Assembly: GCA_025060135.1 (NCBI GenBank)
Contig: JANXCY010000013.1
Coordinates: 2,203-66,202, forward strand
Length of the DNA stretch: 64,000 nt
Direction of reading: 5' to 3'
Source: Anaerolineae bacterium
GTDB lineage: Bacteria; Chloroflexota; Anaerolineae; B4-G1; DUEL01
Below are positions 3,680 to 64,000 of the stretch, in pieces (position 1 is the first letter of the stretch; every line of letters begins with the position of its first letter). The notes under the pieces were generated by a model that did no database searches, was not told the origin of the DNA, and was given only the letters and a program-made list of their open reading frames with translations. Position numbers and translations under genes: made by a program.

Positions 3680-4468
3680 ATGGCGAACAAGTATCTGGGT
3701 CGCGAAGGTGCTCCGTTTGGAGAGGAGGTTTGGGCCGCGCTGGACGCAGCGATGATAGAGGCGGCGAAAAGCCAACTGGCGGGCCGCCGGCTTCTGCCCC
3801 TGGAAGGACCCTACGGCCTGGGCCTGAAAGCGATCTTCTTGCCCGAGGAAGAGGTAGCCTCAGGGGTGTTCGTGAGCAAAACCCTCCCTCTGGTCTTCCT
3901 GGTGGAGGAATTTGTAATACCCCTGCGCGATATCGCGGCCTATGAGCGGGAAGGCCTGGCCCTTAACCTACAGCCAGTGGCTCAGGCCGCCCTTGCCGTG
4001 GCCTGTCGGGAGGACGAATGGATCTTCCACGGTGCGGCGGGTGTGCCTGGCCTCCTGAACGCTTCGGGCGTCCAGAAGATGAAACTCTCCGACTGGAGCC
4101 CGGTCGGCGCAGCGATGGATGATCTTATCCGAGCCGTTACCATATTGGACGAGACGGGCTTTCACGGCCCTTACGCCCTGGGCCTGGCTCCTGCCCGCTA
4201 CAACCTCCTCTTCCGTCGCTATCCCGATGGCCCGATGACCGAACTGGATCACGTCCGGACCCTGGTAACCGGCGGTATCGTCAAAGTCCCCATCCTGAAA
4301 GATGGCGGCGTCCTGCTGGCTGTGGGTCGCCAGTACGCCTCCATCATCCTGGGCCAGGACATGCATGTCGGCTTCATTGGGCCGGATGATGAGGGACTGG
4401 AATTCACCGTCTCCGAGAGCCTGGCTCTGCACCTCAGAGTGCCAGCCTCGGTGTGCGTGCTGGAATAA
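3680..4468 (+). CDS. Family 1 encapsulin nanocompartment shell protein (HK97 fold, linocin M18-like).
   Basis: GRRLLPLEGPYGLG and IILGQDMHVGFIGPDDEGLEFTVSESLAL align with the T. maritima encapsulin motifs GRKFVDVEGPYGWEY and LILGQDLSIGY. It lies 13 nt after EncFtn. Confidence 0.85.
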   Translation: MANKYLGREGAPFGEEVWAALDAAMIEAAKSQLAGRRLLPLEGPYGLGLKAIFLPEEEVASGVFVSKTLPLVFLVEEFVIPLRDIAAYEREGLALNLQPVAQAALAVACREDEWIFHGAAGVPGLLNASGVQKMKLSDWSPVGAAMDDLIRAVTILDETGFHGPYALGLAPARYNLLFRRYPDGPMTELDHVRTLVTGGIVKVPILKDGGVLLAVGRQYASIILGQDMHVGFIGPDDEGLEFTVSESLALHLRVPASVCVLE

Positions 4469-5381: not shown

Positions 5382-6821
5382 TCACCACTCCCTCTGGCCA
5401 TCGGCCAGGAAGCGGTTGATGTCGGCGGCGGCCCGCTTGCCGGCGCCCATCGCGCTCACTACCGTCGCCGCGCCGGTTACCACGTCCCCACCCGCCCAGA
5501 CCCGGGGCATCGTCGTCCGGCCCGTTTCCTCGTCCTTCACCACCACCGTCCCGTGCTTCGTCCGCTGTAACCCCTCCGCGTCCACGAAGACCAGCGGGTT
5601 CGGGCTGGTGCCCAGGGCGAAGATCACCATGTCCACATCCATTTCAAACTCCGAGCCGGGGATCGGGATCGGAGAGCGCCGACCAGAGGCGTCTGGCTCG
5701 CCCAGCGTCATCCGGATGCAGCGCATCCCCGCCACATTCCCCTTCGCATCCCCCAGAATCTCCACCGGATTGGTCAAAAAGTCAAAGATGACCCCTTCCT
5801 CTTCGGCGTGATGGACCTCTTCGGCTCGCGCCGGGACCTCGTCGCGGGAACGGCGGTAGACGATGTGGACTTCGCCGTCCTTCCCTCGCAGGGTCTGGAG
5901 ACGGAGCGCGCAGCGGGCGGCGTCCATTGCCACGTTCCCCGCGCCGATGACGGCGACTTTCCGCCCCACCTTCACCGGCGTGTCGTACTCTGGGAAGAGG
6001 TAGCCCTTCATCAGGTTGACGCGCGTGAGGAACTCGTTGGCGCTCATGACGCCGTTGTAGTTGATGCCCGGGATGCGCATGAACGAGGGGAGCCCGGCGC
6101 CCGTCCCCAGGAAGACCGCGTCGTACTCCGCCAGGAGTTCGGTCAGCGTGAGCGTCCGCCCAATGACGTGGTCAGTGCGAATCTGGATGCCCAGGCACTC
6201 CACCGCGTAGTCAATCTCCGCCTGGACGACGCTCTTGGGCAGACGGAACTCCGGGATGCCATAGACCAGGACGCCGCCGGGGGCATGCAGCGATTCAAAC
6301 ATCACCACCTCATGGCCCTCCCGGGCCACGTCCACCGCGCAGGTGAGCCCCGCCGGGCCGGTGCCGACGACGGCGACCTTCCGGCCGGTGGAGGGCTTGC
6401 GCTCCAGCGGGCAGGTCCGTCGGGCCAGTTCGTAGTCGCCCACGTACCGCTCCAGGCGTCCGATGGCAACGGGCTCGCCCTTCCTGGCCAGAACACAACG
6501 AACCTCACACTGGGTCTCCTGGGGGCAGACCCGCCCGCAGATGGCGGGAAGGCTGTTCTTGACCTTCATCGTCGCCACCGCGCCGACCATGTCCCCCTCC
6601 CGCAGCGCGCGGATAAACTCGGGGATCAAAACGCCCACGGGGCACCCATCCACACAGGGAGGGCGTGCGCACTGAAGGCATCGGTTCGCTTCCGCCACAG
6701 CCAGTTCTTCGGTCAATCCCAGCGCGACCTCGCGGAAGTTGCCCCGCCGGACGACCGGGTCCTGTTCGGGCATCTTCTGGCGGGGGATGCGGAGCCGTTC
6801 TCGTTGGGTAAGAGGGGTCAT
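5382..6821 (-). CDS. nfnB: NfnB/SudA-like large subunit: NADPH-dependent oxidoreductase, GltD family, with two [4Fe-4S] clusters and FAD.
   Basis: CLQCARPPCVDGCP and CGRVCPQ...C are cluster motifs. VAVVGTGPAGLTCA and VAVIGAGNVAMDAA are the two Rossmann motifs. The ATG overlaps the nfnA stop by 1 nt (ATGA at 6819-6823). Confidence 0.8.
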   Translation of the reverse strand: MTPLTQRERLRIPRQKMPEQDPVVRRGNFREVALGLTEELAVAEANRCLQCARPPCVDGCPVGVLIPEFIRALREGDMVGAVATMKVKNSLPAICGRVCPQETQCEVRCVLARKGEPVAIGRLERYVGDYELARRTCPLERKPSTGRKVAVVGTGPAGLTCAVDVAREGHEVVMFESLHAPGGVLVYGIPEFRLPKSVVQAEIDYAVECLGIQIRTDHVIGRTLTLTELLAEYDAVFLGTGAGLPSFMRIPGINYNGVMSANEFLTRVNLMKGYLFPEYDTPVKVGRKVAVIGAGNVAMDAARCALRLQTLRGKDGEVHIVYRRSRDEVPARAEEVHHAEEEGVIFDFLTNPVEILGDAKGNVAGMRCIRMTLGEPDASGRRSPIPIPGSEFEMDVDMVIFALGTSPNPLVFVDAEGLQRTKHGTVVVKDEETGRTTMPRVWAGGDVVTGAATVVSAMGAGKRAAADINRFLADGQREW

Positions 6822-7861: not shown

Positions 7862-10603
7862 TTACCGTCCCTGCGCGGCCCGCAGGAGCAGACTCCCAAT
7901 CCGGGCCGCATCCTCCGGGATAGAGGCATGCTCCAGGAGGACGGCGACCGCATAGCGGGGCGCGTTCGCCGGCGCGACGCCCAAAAACCAGGCATGGGGC
8001 GGTCGGCCTGCCCCTGCCATCGCCGTCCCCAGGTGGCCAAGGGCATCCGGCGAGAAAGACTCCCAGGCCGCCAGCAGGACGCGCGCTGCATCCGGGGGCA
8101 GGACTTCCCGGGGGCGGCCCGGGACCTCTGGCGTCTGCCATGTCCCATCCGGCGCCTGGACCTCCAGCACCCGGCGCGGCACCGGCATCACCCCGTTGTT
8201 GGCCAGCGTCGCCGCCACCAGCGCCATCCGTAGCGGGGAGACGGTCAGGTCGCCCTGACCGATCGCCTCCCGCGCCGCATCAGCGGACATCCCCGCCACC
8301 CGGGGGGGAGGGGTCGGAAGAGCCGGCGACATGCCCTCCGGAGGTCGCGCCCGGGTTTCAGGAGGCCGTTCTGCGGGCACGGCCTCCATCAACCCCCAGC
8401 GAAGGAAGCCTTCCTCCAGCCTCTCTGGGCCCAGTTGCTCCCCCAGGACGGCGAAAGGGCCCGGGCAGGCGGCCCGCAGCGCGCCGATCATCCAATCTTC
8501 CGGTGAGACCTCCCCCCGGCAGGTTACCGTTACGCCGTTGATGAACAGGGTCGCAGTCAGGTTAGGAGCAGGGTTGTAGAGAGTGGTCAGGCCGCGCCGG
8601 AGGGCCTCCGCCAGGACCACCGTCTCCAGCGCCGCCCCGGGCTGGTAGGGCTGAAGGGCCCGGTTCAGCAACGGGCCGCCCGGGTCCTCCCGTAATTGCT
8701 CCCATTCCTCTTCCAGACGGTTGGGATCAAAGGTCGGCGAGGAGGCCATCGCCAGCACCTCGCCGCTGGAAGCGTCCAGCAGCACCACTGCGCCCGTCCG
8801 GCCCGCCAGGGATTGCGCGGCCAGCCGCTGGAGGACAACGTCCAGTGTCAGCCGCACATCCTGGCCATGGGAAGGGCGATGAAGGAGCGCATCCCATGCC
8901 GTCTCCCAGGCGGAACGGTCGGCCTCGCCGCGCAGGACCCGGTCCCATTCCGCCTCGATCCCGCTGGTGCCGTGGCGCAGACTGGCGTAGCCGACCACCG
9001 GCGCCGCCGTCGGTTCCGGATAGACGCGGGTAACCCACCCGTCTGGACTCACCGTCGCGTCGGCCAGGACAACTCCGTTTCGGTCCAGAATCTGGCCCCG
9101 GACGATGCGTTGCTCGTATTCCACCCGGCGGGGGTTATCCTCCCGCGCTACCAGCCATCCGGCCCGCAGAACCGACCAGTAGCCGCAGGCCAAAGCCAGG
9201 ATGGCCAGGGCGGCGCTCAGTCCCAGGGCCAGGTGGCGAACGGGCCGGACCCACTCGCGATCGCGGGGAGCCGGGGTGGTTCCCCCAGAGACCACCAGGA
9301 GCAGGCCCAGGGCGATGAACGTCGCCAGCAAGGAAGAGCCTCCGTACGAGAGGAAGGGCAGGGTTACCCCGGCAATGGGCACCAGTTTGACGTTCGCGGC
9401 CATGATGATCCAGGCCTGGACTCCCCAACCAGCGGTCAACCCAGCAGCCAGGAATCGCTCAAAGGGGCGGGGGGCCCGCAGGGCGACCCGCAGTCCCCGC
9501 AGCAGGAGAACCCCGTAGAGGGCAATGAGGGCCAGCGTTCCCAGGAGGCCAAACTCTTCGGCAACGGCAGCGAAAACGAAGTCAGTGTGAACGGCAGGGA
9601 TATAGGTAGGGCGGCCCAGGCCCAGGCCCTGGCCGAAAATCCCCCCGGCCCCGAAGGCCAGCAGGCTCTGGACGATCTGAAAGGCTTGGTCAGGGGCAGC
9701 AGGCCAGGGGAAGAGCCATATCTGAATCCGCAGCGCCACTCGCTCGGAGCCATAGTATCCCGCCATCCCGACCAGGAGGAAGAGCGCCAGTCCCCCGATC
9801 AGATACCCCCACTGGCTGGTGGCCAGGTAGAGCATGGCCAGGAAGGTGAAGAAGAGGAGCATCGCGGCGCCCAGGTCCTGCTGCGCGGCCAGGAGGAGAA
9901 GGGTGAGGCCGAACATCACCAGCAACGGGCCGACGTAGGCCAGCGGGGGAAGGTTGAGAGGACCAATGCGGTGTCCCGTCGCCTTCAGGAGTTCCCGCCG
10001 CTCAGCCAGATAGGAGGCCAGGAAGACGACCAGGAGAAGTTTCAGAGGCTCTGAGGGCTGGAAGTACGCGCCGCCGATGCCCAGCCAGAGACGGGGGCCG
10101 GCTCCACCGGGGTTGACGCCCAGGACCAGGGTGGCGGCCAAGAGGAGCAAACCCGCAAAGAGCCAGGTGTAGCGGTAACGGCGCAGCCAGCGCAGGGGAA
10201 CCGGCTCCCGCACCCCGATCTGGACGACGGCGATCATCGCTAGAGTGGAGAGGAGAAGCCAGGTCGCCTGGCGGGGGAGGAAATTGGGTGCCAGACGGGC
10301 CACCATGAGCAGGCCCCAACCGCTCAGGAAAGCGGCCACTGGAAGGAGCAACGGGTCTCGGTGGGGCAGGCAACGGGAGAAAGTGGCGTGGGCAGCGGCA
10401 AAGGAGAGGATGAAAGAAAGGAGCAGGCCAATGGCCCGCGCGAGACCCAGAGCGGGAGAGGCCATCAGCAGGGTGGCCGTGCCTGCCGCCACGAAGAGGA
10501 GGGCCAGCAGGAGCAACCCTCGCTCTCGTCGGACAACGAAGGGCGGATAAGGTTCAGTAGGATCCAACATAGGCGTCAGCCGATCCAGGTATCGCAGACG
10601 CAA
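7862..10603 (-). CDS. SEDS (FtsW/RodA/SpoVE) peptidoglycan polymerase fused to a class-B PBP-like domain whose catalytic motifs are degenerate.
   Basis: The N-terminal ~450 aa is polytopic with the SEDS signature GVTLPFLSYGGSSLL. The C-terminal region aligns with bPBP transpeptidases (NRALQPYQPGAALETVV vs NRAV..EPGSTVKP; IGQGDLTVSPLRMA..ATLANNG; GHLGTA..HAWFLGVAP vs GKSGTA..HAWF.GFAP). SxxK reads AALE, SxN reads AAC and KTG reads HLG. Confidence 0.8.
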   Translation of the reverse strand: MRLRYLDRLTPMLDPTEPYPPFVVRRERGLLLLALLFVAAGTATLLMASPALGLARAIGLLLSFILSFAAAHATFSRCLPHRDPLLLPVAAFLSGWGLLMVARLAPNFLPRQATWLLLSTLAMIAVVQIGVREPVPLRWLRRYRYTWLFAGLLLLAATLVLGVNPGGAGPRLWLGIGGAYFQPSEPLKLLLVVFLASYLAERRELLKATGHRIGPLNLPPLAYVGPLLVMFGLTLLLLAAQQDLGAAMLLFFTFLAMLYLATSQWGYLIGGLALFLLVGMAGYYGSERVALRIQIWLFPWPAAPDQAFQIVQSLLAFGAGGIFGQGLGLGRPTYIPAVHTDFVFAAVAEEFGLLGTLALIALYGVLLLRGLRVALRAPRPFERFLAAGLTAGWGVQAWIIMAANVKLVPIAGVTLPFLSYGGSSLLATFIALGLLLVVSGGTTPAPRDREWVRPVRHLALGLSAALAILALACGYWSVLRAGWLVAREDNPRRVEYEQRIVRGQILDRNGVVLADATVSPDGWVTRVYPEPTAAPVVGYASLRHGTSGIEAEWDRVLRGEADRSAWETAWDALLHRPSHGQDVRLTLDVVLQRLAAQSLAGRTGAVVLLDASSGEVLAMASSPTFDPNRLEEEWEQLREDPGGPLLNRALQPYQPGAALETVVLAEALRRGLTTLYNPAPNLTATLFINGVTVTCRGEVSPEDWMIGALRAACPGPFAVLGEQLGPERLEEGFLRWGLMEAVPAERPPETRARPPEGMSPALPTPPPRVAGMSADAAREAIGQGDLTVSPLRMALVAATLANNGVMPVPRRVLEVQAPDGTWQTPEVPGRPREVLPPDAARVLLAAWESFSPDALGHLGTAMAGAGRPPHAWFLGVAPANAPRYAVAVLLEHASIPEDAARIGSLLLRAAQGR

Positions 10604-10621
10604 TGAGTGTCCATCGGTGTC

Positions 10622-13588
10622 CTACCTCCAGAGCGGGACGGCCTCCCACCTCCGGTCGTCCATCGGGGGGAGCGGGGTCATCCGGAAGCGCTCATAGGCG
10701 ACCAGCGTGGCCCGCACTCTGCCGCCCGTCCAGTCCGCCGGAATCAGGATGAGGTGGCGATCCCGGACCCGGGAGCCTGCAATCCATTTCAGTGTGGGGA
10801 CGGTGCCCAGTGCGGGCTGGCAATCATGCGCGCCCAGGAAGCGGCCCGTCTCGTCCGTCAGTCGAACACTGGTGGCGTCGTCGGTCGTCAGCGCGCGCAG
10901 CCCCACCAGCATCACGTCCACCGTCATCCCCGCGCCTGGAGCGACGGGGGAGGCCCGCACGCCCACCACCGCCATCTCGTCCCCCAGGGGCACAAAGCGG
11001 AGGTCGCCTGGCGGGATGACCAGCGATATCCGCTGCAGGGGCCAGCCCCACGGGCCCGCTGCCGTTCGCACCTGGCCGGGTCCGTCGGTTAGGGAAAGGA
11101 GAAGCAGGCCGCGCACCGTCCCGGGGAGGTCCACCGCGACGGTCTGATATGCGCCCGGGGCGAGGGCCGGGAGGGTGGCAGTCCCCTCCGCCCCGCCGGA
11201 AGCCCGGAGATGCAGAGTCCCGCCCGCCGTCGGGCCGCGCCAGTGGAGATAAACCCGCAAGGTGTCCGGCGCCGTCCGGTCGTAGTCGGCGCCGACCAGG
11301 ACGGGCCCTCCCGCATAGGGAACGCGCTGGGGATGGAGGGTGAAAGGCATACGGGTCGCAGACTCCACGTCCAGTTCGGTCAGAAGGGTGAACGACTCCC
11401 CGCCAGCCGTGAGCAGCGGTTCAAATCCGGCTGCGGAGACGGTGTACGCGCCCAGGAGCAGCCGGTAACGACCGGGCCGGAGAGTAGGGTAGAGAGGAAG
11501 CACCAGCCGCTCCCAGCGAATTTCGCCCGGAGCGACGTCCGTGCCCAGGTAACGGTCGGCCTGGGCCACCTCGCGCCCGTCGGCATCGGCCAGGCGCAGG
11601 GTGAAGGACGGCGCGCGGTCGGAGGGGGCCGTCCGTCTCCAGGCCAGGACAACCTCCAGGGCCTGCCCAGCCCGGAACGGCGGGGCAGGCAAGCGGTATC
11701 CCAGCAACTGGACGCCCTCGGCAAAGGCGATGTCCGTCCGGAAAATGGGCGCAGTGATTTCCCGAGCGGGTCGCCGGTGGAGGCGAAAGCCCCAGCCCAC
11801 CGGCTCAGCGCTGTAACCGGGGAAGTCGTAGAAGTGGGTCAGCAGGAGAGGACGGTCGGTGCCGATCTCTTCCACCCACCGCAGCCAGGTGGCCCCGTAG
11901 TCCTCCCCGACGACGGGATAGACGTACTCCACCCGCACATCGGGACGCCGTCCTTCCACTTGCTGGAGGTACCAGAGCGGGGTCGCCCAGTGCCAGTCGG
12001 CCAGGATGACGGCGCCCGGAGGAGCGGCCTCCAGAAGCGGCCCGACCGTCTGGCGGGTAGATGTATCGGCGGCCAGTTCGGTGATGCTCCAGTGTGCCTG
12101 GAGGTTCAGGACCCCTCCCCAGAGAGCCAGCGCCGCCAGAGGAAGTTGGAGTTTCACCACGAAGACGCGAAGACACGAAGTAAATTGATTATATTTTCTT
12201 TGTGTCTTTGTGTCTTCCTGGTTTGTACGATTTCTCCACCCGGCGGGGAGGAGGCCGACGGAGAGGGCAATCGGGAGGTATGCGGGCATCAGATATTCCA
12301 CCGTTTGAGGGGCCCGGTAGGTCAGGGTAACGTAGGTGTGGAGGAGGAAACTGCCCGCCAGCAGGAGGAAGAGCCGCCAATCTCGCCGGAGGACAGCCAG
12401 CAAGCCCAGAGCCGCCAGGGCCAGGAGGAGGCCGTTGAACTGGAAGGTGAGGAGCGTTGGGAGCAGCGCCAGACGGTGAGGGAAGTCCTGGGGATTGGCA
12501 AAGGCGAACATGTCCCCGGCGAACCCTTTCGCCAGGACGTGCCAGAGGAAGCCCTGGAGGGTATCCAGGTCGGGCGGGGCCAGGGGCGCGCCGGCCGCGC
12601 CGCGAATGGGCAGGTAGGCCAGCGGCACGAGCAGCGCGGCCAGAAAGACCAGGACAGGGCGCCACCACCGGCAGGGTTGCAGGAGCAGGCGGGGGTCCAC
12701 GTTCAGCAGATAGAGGATAAAGAAGACGCCGACGAAGGCCAGGGAGGGATGATGCCCGATACCCAGTCCCAGCGCCAGCGCCAGGAGGAGCAGCGCCTGG
12801 TCCCGCCCACCCATTCCCCATGGGCTCTCCGTTGCGAAGCGGGCTAGGGCGTAAAAGGCCAGGGCGGCGAAGAAGAGGGTGGGCATACGGATGTTGGCGA
12901 TAGCGGCCTGGGCCCAGAAGGTAGTGGCGGAGCCCAGCGTCAGTGCGGCAGCGAGGCCCCCCATGCGGGCCAGGAGGGGGGAGGCGCCCAGGTGGCGGGC
13001 CCAAAGGCGGGTCGCTCGGGCCAGCCAGAGCAGGGTAACGACCGCCATCGGCACGCTCATCAGGTTTAGCCGCAGCGCCGGGGGGCCGATGGGGACCAGT
13101 CGGATGAAGAGATGCCCGGCCATCGTATAGAGGGGGTAACCGGGCGGGTGGGCCACACCCAGGAGCGCGGCGGCCAACTGGAACTCGCCGCTATCGGCGG
13201 GGAGGACGTCCCGGGAAAGCGTGGCCAGGTAGAGGGCCGAAAACAGGACGCAGACTCCCGCGTCGGCCAGATGGTCGGCCTGGCGGTCGGAGAGGAGGGG
13301 CAGGCGAGCGCTCTCCCGCAACGATTCTATGGCCCAGACCAGGCAGGCAATGTTTGCCCATGCCAGAGGCAAAAGCCGCCAGGGCCAGAGGACGGCGACC
13401 AGGAGCACCAGCGCGGACCACCCGGTGATCGGAGCCCGGCGGCGGGTTAGGAGAAATCCCCCCGCCCCTCCGGCCAGTGCCAGTGCCAGGATGAAGCAAA
13501 CCGGCAGGGGAATGTCCGGGATCTCCAGCAGGAAGCGAGCCACTACCAGGCCCAGGAGGATGCCGTAGCCGACGGTGAGCCGACGCAT
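10622..13588 (-). CDS. DUF2723/TMEM260-like GT-C-fold glycosyltransferase (988 aa). The C-terminus carries repeated beta-rich modules.
   Basis: DSGEFQLAAALLGVAHPPGYPLY is the DUF2723 signature. It has more than 10 TM helices. The C-terminus carries about three modules similar to those ending the GT-C array proteins (LLGY...LEVVLAWRR...DGREVAQADRYLG...RPGRYRLLLGAY). An 18-nt gap separates it from the downstream SEDS-PBP gene. Confidence 0.7.
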   Translation of the reverse strand: MRRLTVGYGILLGLVVARFLLEIPDIPLPVCFILALALAGGAGGFLLTRRRAPITGWSALVLLVAVLWPWRLLPLAWANIACLVWAIESLRESARLPLLSDRQADHLADAGVCVLFSALYLATLSRDVLPADSGEFQLAAALLGVAHPPGYPLYTMAGHLFIRLVPIGPPALRLNLMSVPMAVVTLLWLARATRLWARHLGASPLLARMGGLAAALTLGSATTFWAQAAIANIRMPTLFFAALAFYALARFATESPWGMGGRDQALLLLALALGLGIGHHPSLAFVGVFFILYLLNVDPRLLLQPCRWWRPVLVFLAALLVPLAYLPIRGAAGAPLAPPDLDTLQGFLWHVLAKGFAGDMFAFANPQDFPHRLALLPTLLTFQFNGLLLALAALGLLAVLRRDWRLFLLLAGSFLLHTYVTLTYRAPQTVEYLMPAYLPIALSVGLLPAGWRNRTNQEDTKTQRKYNQFTSCLRVFVVKLQLPLAALALWGGVLNLQAHWSITELAADTSTRQTVGPLLEAAPPGAVILADWHWATPLWYLQQVEGRRPDVRVEYVYPVVGEDYGATWLRWVEEIGTDRPLLLTHFYDFPGYSAEPVGWGFRLHRRPAREITAPIFRTDIAFAEGVQLLGYRLPAPPFRAGQALEVVLAWRRTAPSDRAPSFTLRLADADGREVAQADRYLGTDVAPGEIRWERLVLPLYPTLRPGRYRLLLGAYTVSAAGFEPLLTAGGESFTLLTELDVESATRMPFTLHPQRVPYAGGPVLVGADYDRTAPDTLRVYLHWRGPTAGGTLHLRASGGAEGTATLPALAPGAYQTVAVDLPGTVRGLLLLSLTDGPGQVRTAAGPWGWPLQRISLVIPPGDLRFVPLGDEMAVVGVRASPVAPGAGMTVDVMLVGLRALTTDDATSVRLTDETGRFLGAHDCQPALGTVPTLKWIAGSRVRDRHLILIPADWTGGRVRATLVAYERFRMTPLPPMDDRRWEAVPLWR
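12160..12218. repeat. Low-GC palindromic (MITE-like) element inserted in-frame inside the DUF2723 gene.
   Basis: Left arm CGAAGACGCGAAGACACGAAG, an 18-nt AT-rich loop TAAATTGATTATATTTTC, and right arm TTTGTGTCTTTGTGTCTTCC. The arms match at 17/20 as an inverted repeat, and each arm contains a duplicated AAGACAC. The element is about 35% GC in a roughly 68% GC gene. It encodes the hydrophilic peptide RNRTNQEDTKTQRKYNQFTSCLRVFVVK between hydrophobic helices. Confidence 0.4.
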
Positions 13589-13807
13589 CGGGGGAGGTTA
13601 TACCATGATTCCCGCTACGTGCAACTGGAAGCAAGAGGGCCATCTGGCTCCCTCACTTCCGATGAACGGATGAAATCGACAGACACCTCTGGACTTCGCC
13701 TGGGAGGTTGTTGTACAATCATGTTGCCTGTGCAGGGGCGCACCGTTCGAAGAAAGGATCAGCCTTGAGGCCTGATCCGAAGTCGGCCTAATGGTCGGGA
13801 GGGACCG

Positions 13808-14302
13808 ATGAATCACCATTCAGTGATCCTGGTCAGCGCGTGTCTGTTGGGGCTTCCCACTGCGTATCACGGAGGCGGGCACCCGGTGGCGGACCTTATT
13901 CGGCTGGCCGCGCTGGGAGCGGTCATCCCCATCTGTCCGGAGGTCGCGGGCGGACTTCCCATCCCCCGCCCGCCGATGGAGATTGTCGGCGGGAGCGGCG
14001 GCGACGTCCTGGATGGGCAGGCGCGCGTCCTCACAGCGAAGGGAGAGGATGTTACCGATGCCTTCCTGCGAGGGGCCGAGCGGGCGCTGGCGCTGGTCCG
14101 GCGGTACGGCATTCGGCTCGCCGTGATGAAAGCCCGGAGTCCCTCCTGTGGTTCCTTGGCAATTTACGATGGCAGCCACAGGGGACGACTCATCCCTGGA
14201 GAGGGAGTTACCGTGGCCCTTCTGCGACGAGCAGGGGTCCGGGTAGTTTCTGAGGAGGAAGACCGGATAGGGCATCTATTTTCGGCCTCGCTGCTGGAGT
14301 GA
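13808..14302 (+). CDS. DUF523 (YbbK-like) family protein.
   Basis: ILVSACLLG...YHGG...CPEV...KARSPSCG matches the DUF523 / 2-thiouracil desulfurase family pattern. Confidence 0.6.
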   Translation: MNHHSVILVSACLLGLPTAYHGGGHPVADLIRLAALGAVIPICPEVAGGLPIPRPPMEIVGGSGGDVLDGQARVLTAKGEDVTDAFLRGAERALALVRRYGIRLAVMKARSPSCGSLAIYDGSHRGRLIPGEGVTVALLRRAGVRVVSEEEDRIGHLFSASLLE

Positions 14303-16767: not shown

Positions 16768-16797
16768 TTGACAAGAGCCCGTACTTCGGTGTATAAT
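16768..16797 (+). promoter_or_regulatory. Strong sigma70 promoter upstream of AOR: TTGACA, 18 nt, TATAAT.
   Basis: -35 at 16768-16773 and -10 at 16792-16797. Immediately upstream lie two adjacent perfect palindromes, CGCGCCGGCGCG (16749-16760) and CGATCG. Confidence 0.6.
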
Positions 16798-16990
16798 AAT
16801 TTCTGAAGTTTGATCTAACGCCACACCCGGCACATTACAGAAAACGCCATACCGGGTTCTCCGACCCACCGCGCTCCCTCCGGGACGAGTGGGCGATACG
16901 GTGTGGGGAGCAATCTCCACGCCCGCCGTGCTTGCAAAGGAGACGCTGAAAGGCGGGCATGTCCCGCCAAAGGGTCTCCTTTTTTATTTA
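16798..16990 (+). promoter_or_regulatory. Structured leader RNA of about 235 nt. It is a candidate riboswitch/attenuator, possibly of the Moco/W-cofactor class, controlling AOR.
   Basis: The leader runs from the promoter to the ATG at 17034. It contains hairpins, including CCCAC...GTGGG. The segment CGCCCGCC (16920-16927) can pair with the 5' half of the terminator stem, giving alternative antiterminator and terminator folds. An SD AGGAGG follows the terminator. Confidence 0.45.
16939..16989 (+). terminator. Intrinsic terminator/attenuator inside the AOR 5' leader.
   Basis: GGAGAC(gcugaaa)GGCGGG(caugu)CCCGCC(aaagg)GUCUCC is followed by TTTTTTATTT. It lies 45 nt upstream of the AOR start codon. 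Confidence 0.55.
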
Positions 16991-28035: not shown

Positions 28036-28476
28036 TTACTTTGTTTTGACCTTGATGGTCTTGGGCTTGATCTCTTCCGCCTTGGGCAGCGTGAGGGTGA
28101 GCACGCCGTTCTCAAAAGTTGCCTCCGCCTTTTCCACATCCACCGGCACATTCAGCACCAGGGAGCGGGCGAAGGGACCATAGGGCCGCTCCTGGAAGAG
28201 ATATTCCACGTTGTCCAGCGGCGGTCGCAGTTCCCCCCGGATAGTCAGCGTGTCCCCCTGAATGGAGATGTCCACCTCTTCGGGCAACAACCCGGGGACC
28301 GAAGCGACCACAACGATCTCCTCCGGAGTGGTGTAAACATCCACCGGCAACCGCAGCGGCTCCTCCGGCGTGCCCCGCCGCCACGTGCTCCATGGGCGGA
28401 CAAACGACTCCTCAAACAGGCGGTCCATCGCTTCCCGCAGGCTCATGATTTCCCGAAACGGAGCGAAGAAAGCCAT
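28036..28476 (-). CDS. Hsp20/alpha-crystallin small heat-shock protein (downstream paralog).
   Basis: It has an alpha-crystallin domain (...ATFENGVLTLTLPKAEEIKPKTIKVK). It is 146 aa and about 60% identical to the upstream paralog. Confidence 0.9.
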   Translation of the reverse strand: MAFFAPFREIMSLREAMDRLFEESFVRPWSTWRRGTPEEPLRLPVDVYTTPEEIVVVASVPGLLPEEVDISIQGDTLTIRGELRPPLDNVEYLFQERPYGPFARSLVLNVPVDVEKAEATFENGVLTLTLPKAEEIKPKTIKVKTK

Positions 28477-28542: not shown

Positions 28543-28983
28543 CTACTTTTTCGCCTTGATTTTGATGGTCTTGGGTTTGACCTCTTCGGCCTTCGGCAGC
28601 GTCAGGGTCAGCACCCCGTTCTCAAAGACGGCTTCAGCGTCGTCGGCGACGACCTTGGTGGGCAGGAGGAAGGAGCGGCAGAAGGAGCCGTAGTAGCGCT
28701 CGCGTCGGACATAGTGCTCATCCCGAATGTTCTCCTCCCGCTTGATCTCCCCCCGCAGGGTGAGCGTATCGCCAGTAACGCTGATCTCCACATCCTCCGG
28801 TTTCACCCCCGGGAGGGTGGCCTTCACCACCACAGCGTTGTCGGTCTCATACATATCTACGGCCGGACCCTCGGCCCAGCGAGAGAGGGCCCCCCAGGGG
28901 CGAACGAAGGACTCCTCAAAGAGCCGGTTCATCGCCTCCCGCAGGCTGACTAACTCCCGGAATGGCTCCCAGCGCATCAACAT
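28543..28983 (-). CDS. Hsp20/alpha-crystallin small heat-shock protein (upstream paralog).
   Basis: Same architecture (FENGVLTLTLPKAEEVKPKTIKIKAKK). The two copies form a tandem duplication. Confidence 0.9.
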   Translation of the reverse strand: MLMRWEPFRELVSLREAMNRLFEESFVRPWGALSRWAEGPAVDMYETDNAVVVKATLPGVKPEDVEISVTGDTLTLRGEIKREENIRDEHYVRRERYYGSFCRSFLLPTKVVADDAEAVFENGVLTLTLPKAEEVKPKTIKIKAKK

Positions 28984-29204
28984 GGCTCATCACCTCCTTT
29001 GCCCTCAGGGATAGAATTTAGGGAGGCATCCTCTCGGGATGCCTTCTCTCACCAATTGCGCCCTTATCATGCCACAGGCGCGTTAGAATTCCGCAAGAGA
29101 AAAATAAGAAAAGTGATAGAATTAGCAGACAGCGTGAGGGGGTGGAGCCATGCCGCCGGTGCTCTCTTTGGGGAATGAGGGAGGATAAAAATCTGACCCG
29201 GCTT

Positions 29205-32708: not shown

Positions 32709-32884
32709 CGAAACCTCCTTATCCATCGCAGACCGCAGGGAATAGGTTTCTGTACAGTATACCACACCTTCCGGAGACGGCCAAGTCCCCGTTCCCGCCC
32801 ACAACTTGACAGAACCTATTCTTTATGATAAAACCTCATTCGTAGCCATTCATGGTCGCTGTTCCGCCCGAGAAGGAGAACCCT

Positions 32885-61970: not shown

Positions 61971-62106
61971 GTCTGCTACCTCCTTCAGGTATGGAAACAA
62001 CAGATTTCCGGCGAAGCGTTCCGCCCATACAAAAAAGACCACCCGGCCTCCGCAAGCCTGGGTGGTCTTTTCAGACGGAACCAGAACTTACTTCGCCTTA
62101 CATACA

Positions 62107-62134
62107 AGTATATCACAGTTTGCCAGAAAGTCAA
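62107..62134 (-). promoter_or_regulatory. cspA promoter: TTGACT, 16 nt, TATACT.
   Basis: Minus strand: -35 is the revcomp of 62129-62134 and -10 the revcomp of 62107-62112. This gives a 5' UTR of about 125 nt. Confidence 0.5.
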
Positions 62135-62240
62135 ACGGCAGCAAAAACCTGAGGGATTTCATCGCCGCTGCTGGACGTTGCCGTCTCAGCGTATCGCCGC
62201 GCGGGGAGGCGGTGGGATCAGGGTGTTGGGGGATGGTTGG

Positions 62241-62552: not shown

Positions 62553-64000
62553 CTATAGCACCATCGGCTCCCGGTAGAGACCAAAGACCCCCCGGAAGAT
62601 GTCCATGATTTCCTGCAGGGTGGCGTAGGCGCGGACGGCGTTGAGGATATGTGGCATGACGTTCTCCGTCCCCTGGGCGGCGATGCGCAGCCGGTCCAGC
62701 GCCTGCCCCACCGCGCCGTTATCCCGTTCCGCCCGCACCTGAGCCAGCCGTTGGCACTGCCGCCGGTAGCCTTCAGGGTCCATTTTCAGAAGGGGCACCT
62801 GAAGGGGTTCTTCGGCCACGAATTCGTTGACTCCAACGATAATCCGCCGCCGTTCATCAATCTCCCGCTGGTAGCGGTAGGCGGCGTCGGCGATCTCTCT
62901 CTGGAAGAAACCAGCCTCAATGGCCGGGATGACACCACCCAGTGCCGCAATACGGGCGAAGTACTCGTAGGCCTGCCGCTCCAGCCGGTCGGTGAGGGCT
63001 TCTATAACGTAGGAACCACCCAGTGGGTCCACGGTGTTGACCACGCCCGATTCGTGGGCGATAATCTGCTGGGTGCGCAGTGCGATGGTCACGGCGAACT
63101 CGCTGGGCAGCGCCAGCGCCTCGTCCAGCGAGTTGGTGTGCAGCGATTGCGTCCCGCCCAAGACCGCTGCCAGGGCCTGAATGGCGACGCGGACGATGTT
63201 GATCTCCGGCTGCTGGGCAGTAAGCGTGCATCCAGCAGTCTGGGTGTGGAAACGCATCCACCAGGAGCGGGGATTCTTGGCTCCAAAAGTATGGCGCATC
63301 TCGCGCGCCCAGATGCGGCGGGCAGCCCGGAATTTGGCGATCTCTTCCAGAAAGTCGTTGTGACAGTTAAAAAAGAAAGAAAGGCGCGGAGCAAACTCAT
63401 CGATATCCAGACCACGCCGCAGGCACCACCGAACGTACTCCATCCCATCGGCCAGGGTGAAGGCCAGTTCCTGCGCGGCGGTCGCTCCGGCCTCCCGGAT
63501 GTGGTACCCGCTGATGCTGATCGGATTCCACCTGGGGAGATACCGGCTGGCGAACTCTATGGTGTCCGTCACCAGCCGCATAGAGGGCTCCGGCGGGAAG
63601 AGGTACTCTTTCTGGGCAATATACTCTTTGAGGATGTCGTTCTGGATGGTACCGCCCAGTTGGTCCATCCGGACCCCCTGCTTCTCCGCCGCCGCAATGT
63701 ACATGGCCCAGATGACCGCCGCCGGACTGTTGATGGTCATGGACGTGGTGACCTGATCCAGCGGGATACCGTCAAAGAGAATTTCCATGTCCTTCAGCGA
63801 CGAGACAGCGACGCCGCACTTGCCGAACTCCCCCTCCGCTTCCGGGGCGTCGGTGTCGTAGCCCATGAGGGTGGGCAGGTCAAAGGCTACCGAGAGGCCG
63901 GTTTCCCCGTGGGCCAGCAGGTACTTGAAGCGGGCGTTGGTCTCCTCAGCGGTGCCAAATCCAGCGAACATCCGCATCGTCCACAGCCGCCCCCGGTACA
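62553..64000 (-). CDS. Methylmalonyl-CoA mutase family catalytic (N-terminal TIM-barrel) subunit. The N-terminus runs off the window end, so the gene is partial.
   Basis: [42 protein letters not shown] is the MCM substrate-binding barrel. It ends without a B12-binding domain, so this is a split-type MCM or ICM. Confidence 0.85.

Follow-up and report, generated by a model that had tools for sequence, protein, structure and literature searches.

The stretch of DNA analysed here (64 kb of contig JANXCY010000013.1 from an Anaerolineae bacterium, assembly GCA_025060135.1; "the window") carries a short palindrome of low GC content inside a gene for a membrane glycosyltransferase. A preliminary description had placed a palindromic element at 12160-12218, and the sequence that it quoted is exactly the sequence found there. 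It gave the GC content of this segment as about 35%: the content is indeed low, but the computed value is 37%, in a host gene of 68.4% GC. The palindrome region is the lowest-GC stretch of the window, whose mean is 64% GC. The arms had been delimited so as to match at 17 of 20 positions, but we found 16 of 20, and the full palindrome is larger. An inverted-repeat finder pairs 12156-12185 with 12193-12222, which gives 30-nt arms that are complementary at 25 of 30 positions (83%) around a 7-nt loop. The whole imperfect palindrome (12156-12222) is 67 nt long and 39% GC. The features of the locus are:

10622-13588, minus strand: host gene, encoding a 988-amino-acid TMEM260-like/DUF2723 (GT-C type) membrane glycosyltransferase (open reading frame [ORF], Pfam)
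12156-12222, no strand: whole imperfect palindrome, 67 nt, a decayed heptad palindrome of 3+3 units with an 8-nt unit period (inverted repeat, fold z of -7 to -8, family detector)
12152-12157, plus strand: family end motif TTTCAC ahead of arm 1 (family flank consensus ttNAC/CACGAAG)
12156-12185, plus strand: arm 1, with units CACGAAG (12158-12164), CGCGAAG (12166-12172) and CACGAAG (12174-12180) (sequence); peptide on the mRNA strand TSCLRVFVV (translation)
12181-12197, no strand: wider AT-rich core between the heptad units (inverted repeat and fold)
12186-12192, no strand: central unpaired loop of the full palindrome (inverted repeat and fold)
12188-12216, minus strand: putative sigma-70-like consensus match, AAGACA-17 nt-TATAAT, in sense orientation (10 of 12 matches)
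12193-12222, plus strand: arm 2, with degraded units CTTTGTG (12198-12204), CTTTGTG (12206-12212) and CTTCCTG (12214-12220) (sequence, mismatch classes); peptide on the mRNA strand NQEDTKTQRK (translation)
12222-12230, plus strand: lineage-specific 9-nt insertion TTTGTACGA, adjoining the palindrome, its placement ambiguous by a few nucleotides (comparison with ortholog DNA)

Each arm contains three units of 8 nt in tandem, built on a CACGAAG core. On the plus strand, the left arm reads TTTCAC-CACGAAG-A-CGCGAAG-A-CACGAAG and the right arm, which is degraded, reads CTTTGTG-T-CTTTGTG-T-CTTCCTG-GT. The palindrome folds strongly on either strand, at -28.7 kcal/mol on the mRNA strand (z = -7.0) and at -37.3 kcal/mol on the plus strand (z = -7.9), where the stem runs for 20 uninterrupted base pairs; none of 200 shuffles folded as well in either case. 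The 9-nt insertion TTTGTACGA adds R-T-N to the protein loop and extends the low-GC island, and it is absent from all of the orthologs examined. We found no second copy of the palindrome and no other repeat family within the 64-kb window.

The host ORF is uninterrupted, and its product matches Pfam PF11028 (TMEM260-like protein O-mannosyltransferase, formerly DUF2723) with E = 8e-25, so the palindrome does lie in frame in a DUF2723 gene, as had been reported. The peptide RNRTNQEDTKTQRKYNQFTSCLRVFVVK corresponds to residues 452-479, and the insert to residues 456-478. An AlphaFold model of the protein (55 homologs) has a mean predicted local distance difference test (pLDDT) score of 88.9 and a predicted template modelling (pTM) score of 0.89; residues 451-480 form its lowest-pLDDT blocks (55-68). 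In the model, a membrane helix (430-450) is followed by a coil (451-466) that contains the hydrophilic arm and by a helix (467-498) that starts with the hydrophobic arm. The insert maps to this low-confidence loop before the last membrane helix and to the N-terminal extension of the 467-498 helix. Because the last helix is followed by a large beta-rich soluble domain and because K and R are abundant in the loop, the loop is probably cytoplasmic and away from the catalytic face in the modelled protein. That foreign palindromic DNA adds a peptide (of about 22 residues, by our count) between hydrophobic helices, as the preliminary description held, is supported by this model and by the family scans, copies in relatives and empty orthologs that are described below.

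The same loop holds repeats in other orthologs. In an ortholog of about 38% identity (L240), it contains an independent 3+3 palindrome of CACAGAT units (z = 9.6), and in many distant orthologs it contains direct tandem repeats of heptamers or longer units. (Direct tandem repeats lie in the loop homologous to residues 451-480 in L209, L210, L212, L238, L241, L222, L232, L229, L201, and L215/L263; examples from distant orthologs are GCGAATC-type heptamers and a 24-nt repeat, present three times, that encodes PVLSRVEG.) In these TMEM260-like enzymes, the loop that precedes the last membrane helix repeatedly takes in repeat DNA and is a general sink for it. Such a tolerant loop is also a possible site for engineered insertions. 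Annotators should keep the ORF intact, as the low-GC stretch is neither an error, nor a frameshift, nor a recent invasion.

The CACGAAG heptad palindromes

We use the name heptad palindrome for 2-4 tandem units with a CACGAAG core and a period of 8-10 nt, followed by a loop and by an equal number of inverted units. We scanned for such elements with the pattern CACGAAG-N1-3-CACGAAG-N5-35-CTTCGTG. In viral contigs, 59 stretches match, many of them on both strands, and several contigs are multi-copy. A composition-matched shuffled heptamer, used as a control, gave 8 stretches (about 5 of them distinct), mostly in ordinary coding sequence. Contigs of species-representative genomes contain at least 120 matches. 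The genome matches listed include Acidobacteriota, Desulfobacterota, Chloroflexota, Planctomycetota, Verrucomicrobiota, Methylobacter and other Gammaproteobacteria, Bacteroidota, Firmicutes, Heliobacteria, Nitrospirota, and Binatia, among others. Two cultured isolates with matches are Thiohalophilus thiocyanatoxydans DSM 16326 and Desulfobacter vibrioformis DSM 8776.

From many phyla, we collected 168 distinct copies. Their commonest architecture is 3+3 units, with a unit period of 8-10 nt (most often 9), a loop with a median length of 21 nt and 43% GC, a median total length of 68 nt, and the end consensus ttNAC/CACGAAG. The window palindrome is a member of this family. The family detector places it at 12158-12220, with 3+3 units and a 17-nt gap; the units start at 12158, 12166, and 12174, and the inverted units start at 12198, 12206, and 12214. 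It also has the family end (TTTCAC/CACGAAG at 12152-12164), and its 67 nt fall within the family length of about 53-86 nt; the opposite end is degraded (CTTCCTGGTTTG). The low GC of the palindrome reflects the AT-rich loop of the family together with G>A decay of the units.

Most copies (141 of 168) are intergenic. Their split over convergent, divergent, and co-directional spacers matches the baseline (for example, 26 of 124 copies are in divergent spacers, which hold 22% of intergenic bases), and intergenic copies have no strand-specific folding preference relative to the flanking genes (28 vs. 36, P = 0.16). Copies within one contig have subtype features in common, such as a loop motif, and differ in details. 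A contig from a Candidatus Binatia metagenome-assembled genome (MAG), L139, provides an example of a genome-specific subfamily: its three copies within 4.2 kb (1417-1472, 3978-4033, and 5535-5590) each lie in a spacer between consecutive co-directional genes, and they have a common loop palindrome, TTCGGA...TCCGAA. Around the seed matches, extra copies occur about once per 123 kb, so a single copy in the 64-kb window is unremarkable.

We also considered whether the elements are terminators. We found no terminator-like site. The consensus flanks of the family, which are T-rich before the stem and A-rich after it, extend the stem and form no U-tail, and divergent regions are not depleted of copies. 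Searches of Rfam returned only sub-threshold, chance microRNA-like matches at the window site and none in 10 copy-rich loci. BLAST searches with the consensus element gave no match in cultured phages and one weak match, from Bacteroides, among plasmids. Full-text literature searches for the heptad strings returned nothing relevant, and a search for heptanucleotide repeats was uninformative. In the literature that we searched, we could not find a description of this repeat family, in which tandem heptad-core units form inverted arrays and whose core and end motif are common across phyla.

Age of the insertion and mobility in relatives

The palindrome is old. Among the 120 homologs listed, the 23 closest (76-85% amino acid identity) form one clade of Anaerolineae/Thermoflexales (P0001-P0024) in a simple neighbour-joining tree that was built with the loop masked. 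Most of these 23, among the matches listed, have the peptide pair HEDTKTQRK...SSCLRVFVV at one and the same position of the alignment, and in more than 10 orthologs from other metagenomes a homologous palindrome occupies the same codon position, sometimes in a cleaner version (for example, CCACGAAGACACGAAGACACAAAGA-AAAAATTTA-TCTTCGTGTCTTCGTGTCTTGGTGG in L195). Orthologs at 67% identity or below lack it. As the palindrome is on both major branches of the clade, it was present in their common ancestor. A recent insertion, as first proposed, does not fit with the same site being occupied on both branches of a clade of 76-85% identity, nor with mismatches at 5 of the 30 stem positions. In the comparison of orthologs for presence and absence that had been proposed, the palindrome is present in most of the 76-85% clade and absent both at 67% identity or below and in P0016. 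Also, contigs from an NCBI MAG, GCA_033581355.1 ('Anaerolineae bacterium'), and from the Logan assembly of SRR15826899 encode the identical protein; these assemblies were produced separately, so the palindrome is not an assembly artefact.

Several members of the clade depart from this pattern, and these exceptions look derived. P0016 has an empty site (GGGGAAAC-CCC-AAAATT, compared to GAAAC-(CACGAAG...CTTCGTGGT)-CAAAAT in filled sites). P0022 keeps only the outermost units (CATAAAGACACGA and CCTTCGTGGTA), and P0024 keeps only CAC/CGTCTT. In P0019, P0023, and L193/L194/L199, the site holds a palindrome of the same design with CGCAGAG units, and P0017 has a remnant of the CGCAGAG type. In L006, a second CACGAAG palindrome, with a 9-10-nt period, is in place of the old left arm and loop. 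Finally, in L208, a further element (with the end GTAATTACCTACC) lies inside the hairpin loop of the copy in the glycosyltransferase gene. The palindrome is dispensable and unstable, and intact orthologs have lost all or most of it. The site is a dated series of states, which comprise decay without compensation, internal deletion, replacement by another repeat type, and use as a landing pad for further elements.

The family has been active more recently elsewhere in these genomes. Upstream of the gene, at a distance of about 830 nt, L189 and L208 have a CACGAAG palindrome with an 8-nt period in the spacer of two co-directional genes. This upstream palindrome is missing from L190 and L187, whose flanks are 94-97% identical to those of L189 and L208. 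From this sequence polymorphism, we conclude that the family was recently mobile in close relatives. There is no target-site duplication at this polymorphic intergenic site (L189/L208 vs. L190/L187). The search for target-site duplications that had been suggested came out negative throughout: there is none at the gene site, where we compared filled orthologs with the empty site of P0016, and flanking direct repeats of 3-9 nt are not in excess among 103 family members.

The hairpin loops themselves act as landing sites for other elements. In L191 (516-643), the upstream intergenic CACGAAG palindrome just described holds in its loop a miniature inverted-repeat transposable element (MITE) of about 126 nt. 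The terminal inverted repeats of this MITE are TGAGTCCACTGCAAAAA, its core is a CGCAGAG palindrome, and TCA is duplicated. The same terminal repeats occur in L005 (2019-2063 and 18208-18253) and L006 (16582-16631 and 18424-18469). Another element, with the ends GTAATTACCTACC and GGTAGGTAATTAC, is represented in L208 (2917-3047), L211 (60-101), L005 (18909-18921), and L006 (19247-19259). It interrupts the loops of two different CACGAAG palindromes, one being the copy in the glycosyltransferase gene (in L208) and the other the upstream intergenic palindrome of L211, which is interrupted by the other end of the element. Just inside one of its ends is a 4+4 palindrome of CACAAAGG. The element is known from these four end fragments, with both interruptions at contig ends, and it could represent an autonomous relative of the family.

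Origin and fate of the palindrome

The palindrome in the window is most probably an old and vertically inherited relic, now slowly decaying, of a palindromic repeat that was small and non-autonomous; as such, it would be tolerated selfish DNA. We propose that a heptad-palindrome copy entered the gene in an ancestor of the Anaerolineae/Thermoflexales clade. It would have added a multiple of three nucleotides (about 60-66 nt, or 20-22 codons) and no stop codon, and the site of entry would have been the short loop that joins the final two membrane helices of a TMEM260-like glycosyltransferase. As part of the transcribed and translated gene, one arm would form a hydrophilic loop rich in K, R, T, and Q, and the other arm (SCLRVFVV) would lengthen the following helix. 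Presumably, the protein tolerates the insert and hence selection has not removed it. Nor is the palindrome maintained: point mutations break its pairs and are not compensated, and in sister lineages it has been deleted, replaced, or invaded further. We infer that the element has no function of its own. Because insertion leaves no target-site duplication and because insertions are found inside hairpin loops, we also infer that the family is moved in trans by an enzyme that acts on hairpin or single-stranded DNA.

The palindrome is decaying. In ten distinct orthologs, 85% of the cells are paired, 13 of 28 pairs depart from pairing through unpaired cells only, and just 2 cells have changed on both sides. 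In the same orthologs, measures of covariation were not distinguished from slid controls. Identity at third codon positions is 0.81 and 0.69 in the two arms and 0.746 gene-wide, so the arms show no extra conservation at synonymous positions. From overall divergence, we would expect about 3-4 broken pairs per lineage, and the window copy has 5 of 30. The RNA hairpin that was suggested earlier is thermodynamically stable, but there is no sign of compensatory evolution.

Several observations weigh against the view that the palindrome is a decaying relic of a mobile repeat. Mismatches in the stem comprise ten distinct states that are A.C on the mRNA strand (and hence G.U on the opposite strand) and three of the reverse, and pure neutral decay does not predict this bias. 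At third codon positions across the gene, C>T is favoured over G>A on the sense strand, which predicts the opposite mismatch bias; a mutational bias is rejected as the cause of the asymmetry for the same reason. The bias is weak (P ~ 0.05 at even odds), and constraints on the amino acids confound it. The asymmetry possibly reflects selection against a stable hairpin in translated mRNA or a strand-specific effect of repair. The dating depends on a simple neighbour-joining tree, and we found no clean pair of empty and filled sites for this type of element. The lone copy in the window does not establish that the element is multicopy in this genome. Finally, there was no co-located transposase among 5,363 clustered ORFs from 179 loci (up to 23 kb each); the recurrent ORF clusters at these loci were only phage structural genes, kinases, transporters, and spurious GC-rich ORFs.

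The asymmetry might instead mean that the hairpin is a functional structure kept by selection, for example as a translational pause, in mRNA processing or stability, or in an antisense or single-stranded DNA role. Most orthologs of the clade retain a recognisable palindrome, it folds strongly (z of about -7 to -8), the antisense strand folds better in most orthologs, and the 10:3 bias towards A.C on the mRNA strand, which opposes the gene-wide substitution bias, is what leaves the plus strand with its uninterrupted 20-bp stem at -37.3 kcal/mol. Nevertheless, we consider a maintained function unlikely. Pairs are broken without covariation, roughly as often as gene-wide divergence would predict, third codon positions are no better conserved in the arms than elsewhere in the gene, the sequence and length of the loop vary, and intact orthologs have dispensed with all or most of the palindrome. 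Also, intergenic family members have no strand preference. Another possible function is an internal sigma-70-type promoter, for a transcript of the C-terminal soluble domain or for downstream genes. The TATAAT that had been noticed on the coding strand is present, with AAGACA 17 nt upstream. This is the one such site, with 10 of 12 matches where shuffles would give 0.1 sites, and its parts come from the repeat: the unit supplies a -35-like hexamer that contains GACA, and the AT-rich loop supplies the -10-like hexamer. However, TATAAT sits in the loop, which is different in every ortholog examined, so that activity would be an accident of this lineage, and a consensus match is no evidence of function. 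A promoter here seems quite unlikely.

The origin of the palindrome could also be explained differently. If short units slipped and a local inverted duplication followed, then the palindrome could have arisen in place, with no mobile insertion. The direct tandem heptamers in the same loop of distant orthologs imply that slippage is possible there, and no target-site duplication marks an insertion. On the other hand, the unit core, the number of units, the length, and the terminal motif are common to 168 elements at unrelated loci in many phyla, and the window copy matches the polymorphic intergenic copies with an 8-nt period in close relatives. An origin in place is therefore very unlikely. 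As for a recent insertion or an assembly artefact, the contrast in composition (37-39% vs. 68% GC) is what would suggest it, but the same protein in separately produced assemblies and the homologous palindromes that orthologs from many metagenomes have at this codon position make it almost certainly wrong.

If the palindrome is a relic of a mobile repeat, it is natural to ask which known elements it resembles. Rickettsia palindromic elements are small repeats that lie in frame in unrelated protein-coding genes, to which they add a tolerated peptide (PMC10969869; PMC3733652). The window palindrome likewise is in frame in an intact conserved ORF, but the likeness is one of behaviour only. Rickettsia palindromic elements are about 100-150 bp, were described from Rickettsia, and have a conserved peptide per family, whereas the window element is 67 bp and is built of tandem units with a heptad core, its host belongs to the Anaerolineae/Thermoflexales, and its family is found in many phyla, with 141 of 168 copies intergenic.

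REP (repetitive extragenic palindromic) elements are mainly extragenic hairpins that lack target-site duplications, are targets for other insertions, and occasionally lie in ORFs, where they encode 20-30 residues (PMC3733652). Heptad palindromes are similar to REPs and REPINs in all of these respects, as they are mainly extragenic, have no target-site duplication, receive other insertions, and are sometimes intragenic. However, the GTAG or CGTC tag of REPs and REPINs (PMC3733652) is absent, the ends of the window copy being TTTCAC/CACGAAG and CTTCCTG/GT. In a heptad palindrome, each arm consists of 2-4 tandem units separated by variable spacers of 1-3 nt, instead of a single REP. A gene similar to the REP-associated tyrosine transposase (RAYT, of the Y1/HUH type), the partner of REPs and REPINs, does not recur next to heptad copies (179 loci, up to 23 kb). 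And REP families are usually lineage-specific, while the heptad core is common across phyla. Thus, the heptad palindrome belongs neither to the Rickettsia palindromic elements nor to the REP families, although its behaviour matches both.

The element had also been called MITE-like, and this holds in part. MITEs can fuse in frame with host ORFs (PMC10969869). Like the bacterial MITEs Correia, ERIC, and Nezha, heptad palindromes are small, non-coding, multicopy inverted repeats that vary in presence between close relatives, and the window element, with its 30-nt inverted arms and 67 nt, has no coding capacity of its own and is a small inverted-repeat insertion in frame. A classical MITE is not supported, as there is no target-site duplication, and no related autonomous insertion sequence was found at the 179 loci; in contrast, the MITE with TGAGTCCACTGCAAAAA ends that is nested in L191 has a duplicated TCA. 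Cyanobacteria reportedly contain heptanucleotide tandem repeats known as short tandemly repeated repetitive (STRR) sequences, said to have been described by Mazel and colleagues in J Bacteriol in 1990. These also consist of tandem units of heptamer scale that are dispersed through the genome, but STRRs are direct arrays, and in the heptad palindrome two short arrays face each other as a palindrome across a loop.

The finding at the level of the gene is ordinary, and it is the pattern at the level of the family that merits follow-up. Small palindromic repeats are usually lineage-specific, so one may ask which enzyme or host factor recognises a core that is kept both across phyla and in phage-like contigs. 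It is possible, if on balance doubtful, that the CACGAAG heptads are an undescribed cross-phylum family whose invariant heptad and TTNAC/C end reflect a conserved trans-acting factor. Candidates for this factor are a transposase specific for hairpins or single strands, which would make no target duplication and would prefer hairpin loops, or a host factor that binds heptad arrays. If so, then the copy in the glycosyltransferase gene would be a datable fossil of the system, and its strand-biased decay would record selection against a stable hairpin in translated mRNA or a repair bias that is specific to hairpins.

Neighbouring genes and other features of the window

In the window (7862-14302), gene calls on L001, which has the same sequence, place the glycosyltransferase gene between a 2-thiouridine desulfurase-like gene and an FtsW/PBP gene. 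In the relatives L003, L005, L006, L266, L267, and L269, the gene instead lies between greA/aspS/serS and a UPF0182 gene with efp. Two of these, L005 (JAEDZT010001342.1) and L006 (JAEDZT010001333.1), are syntenic but diverged copies of the region within a single assembly, GCA_017880035.1, and their proteins are 83% and 81% identical to the query; this bin probably mixes two related populations.

Other low-GC islands in the window (35% GC or less over 40 nt) are at 16778-16825, 29079-29139, 32799-32857, 62082-62137, and 63339-63384. None is palindrome-like, and they look like ordinary AT-rich intergenic or promoter DNA, with motifs such as TGTATAAT and GATAGAAT. The window also contains a 71-nt direct repeat (28046-28116 and 28556-28626, 510 nt apart and 87% identical), which probably corresponds to two tandem paralogous small genes.

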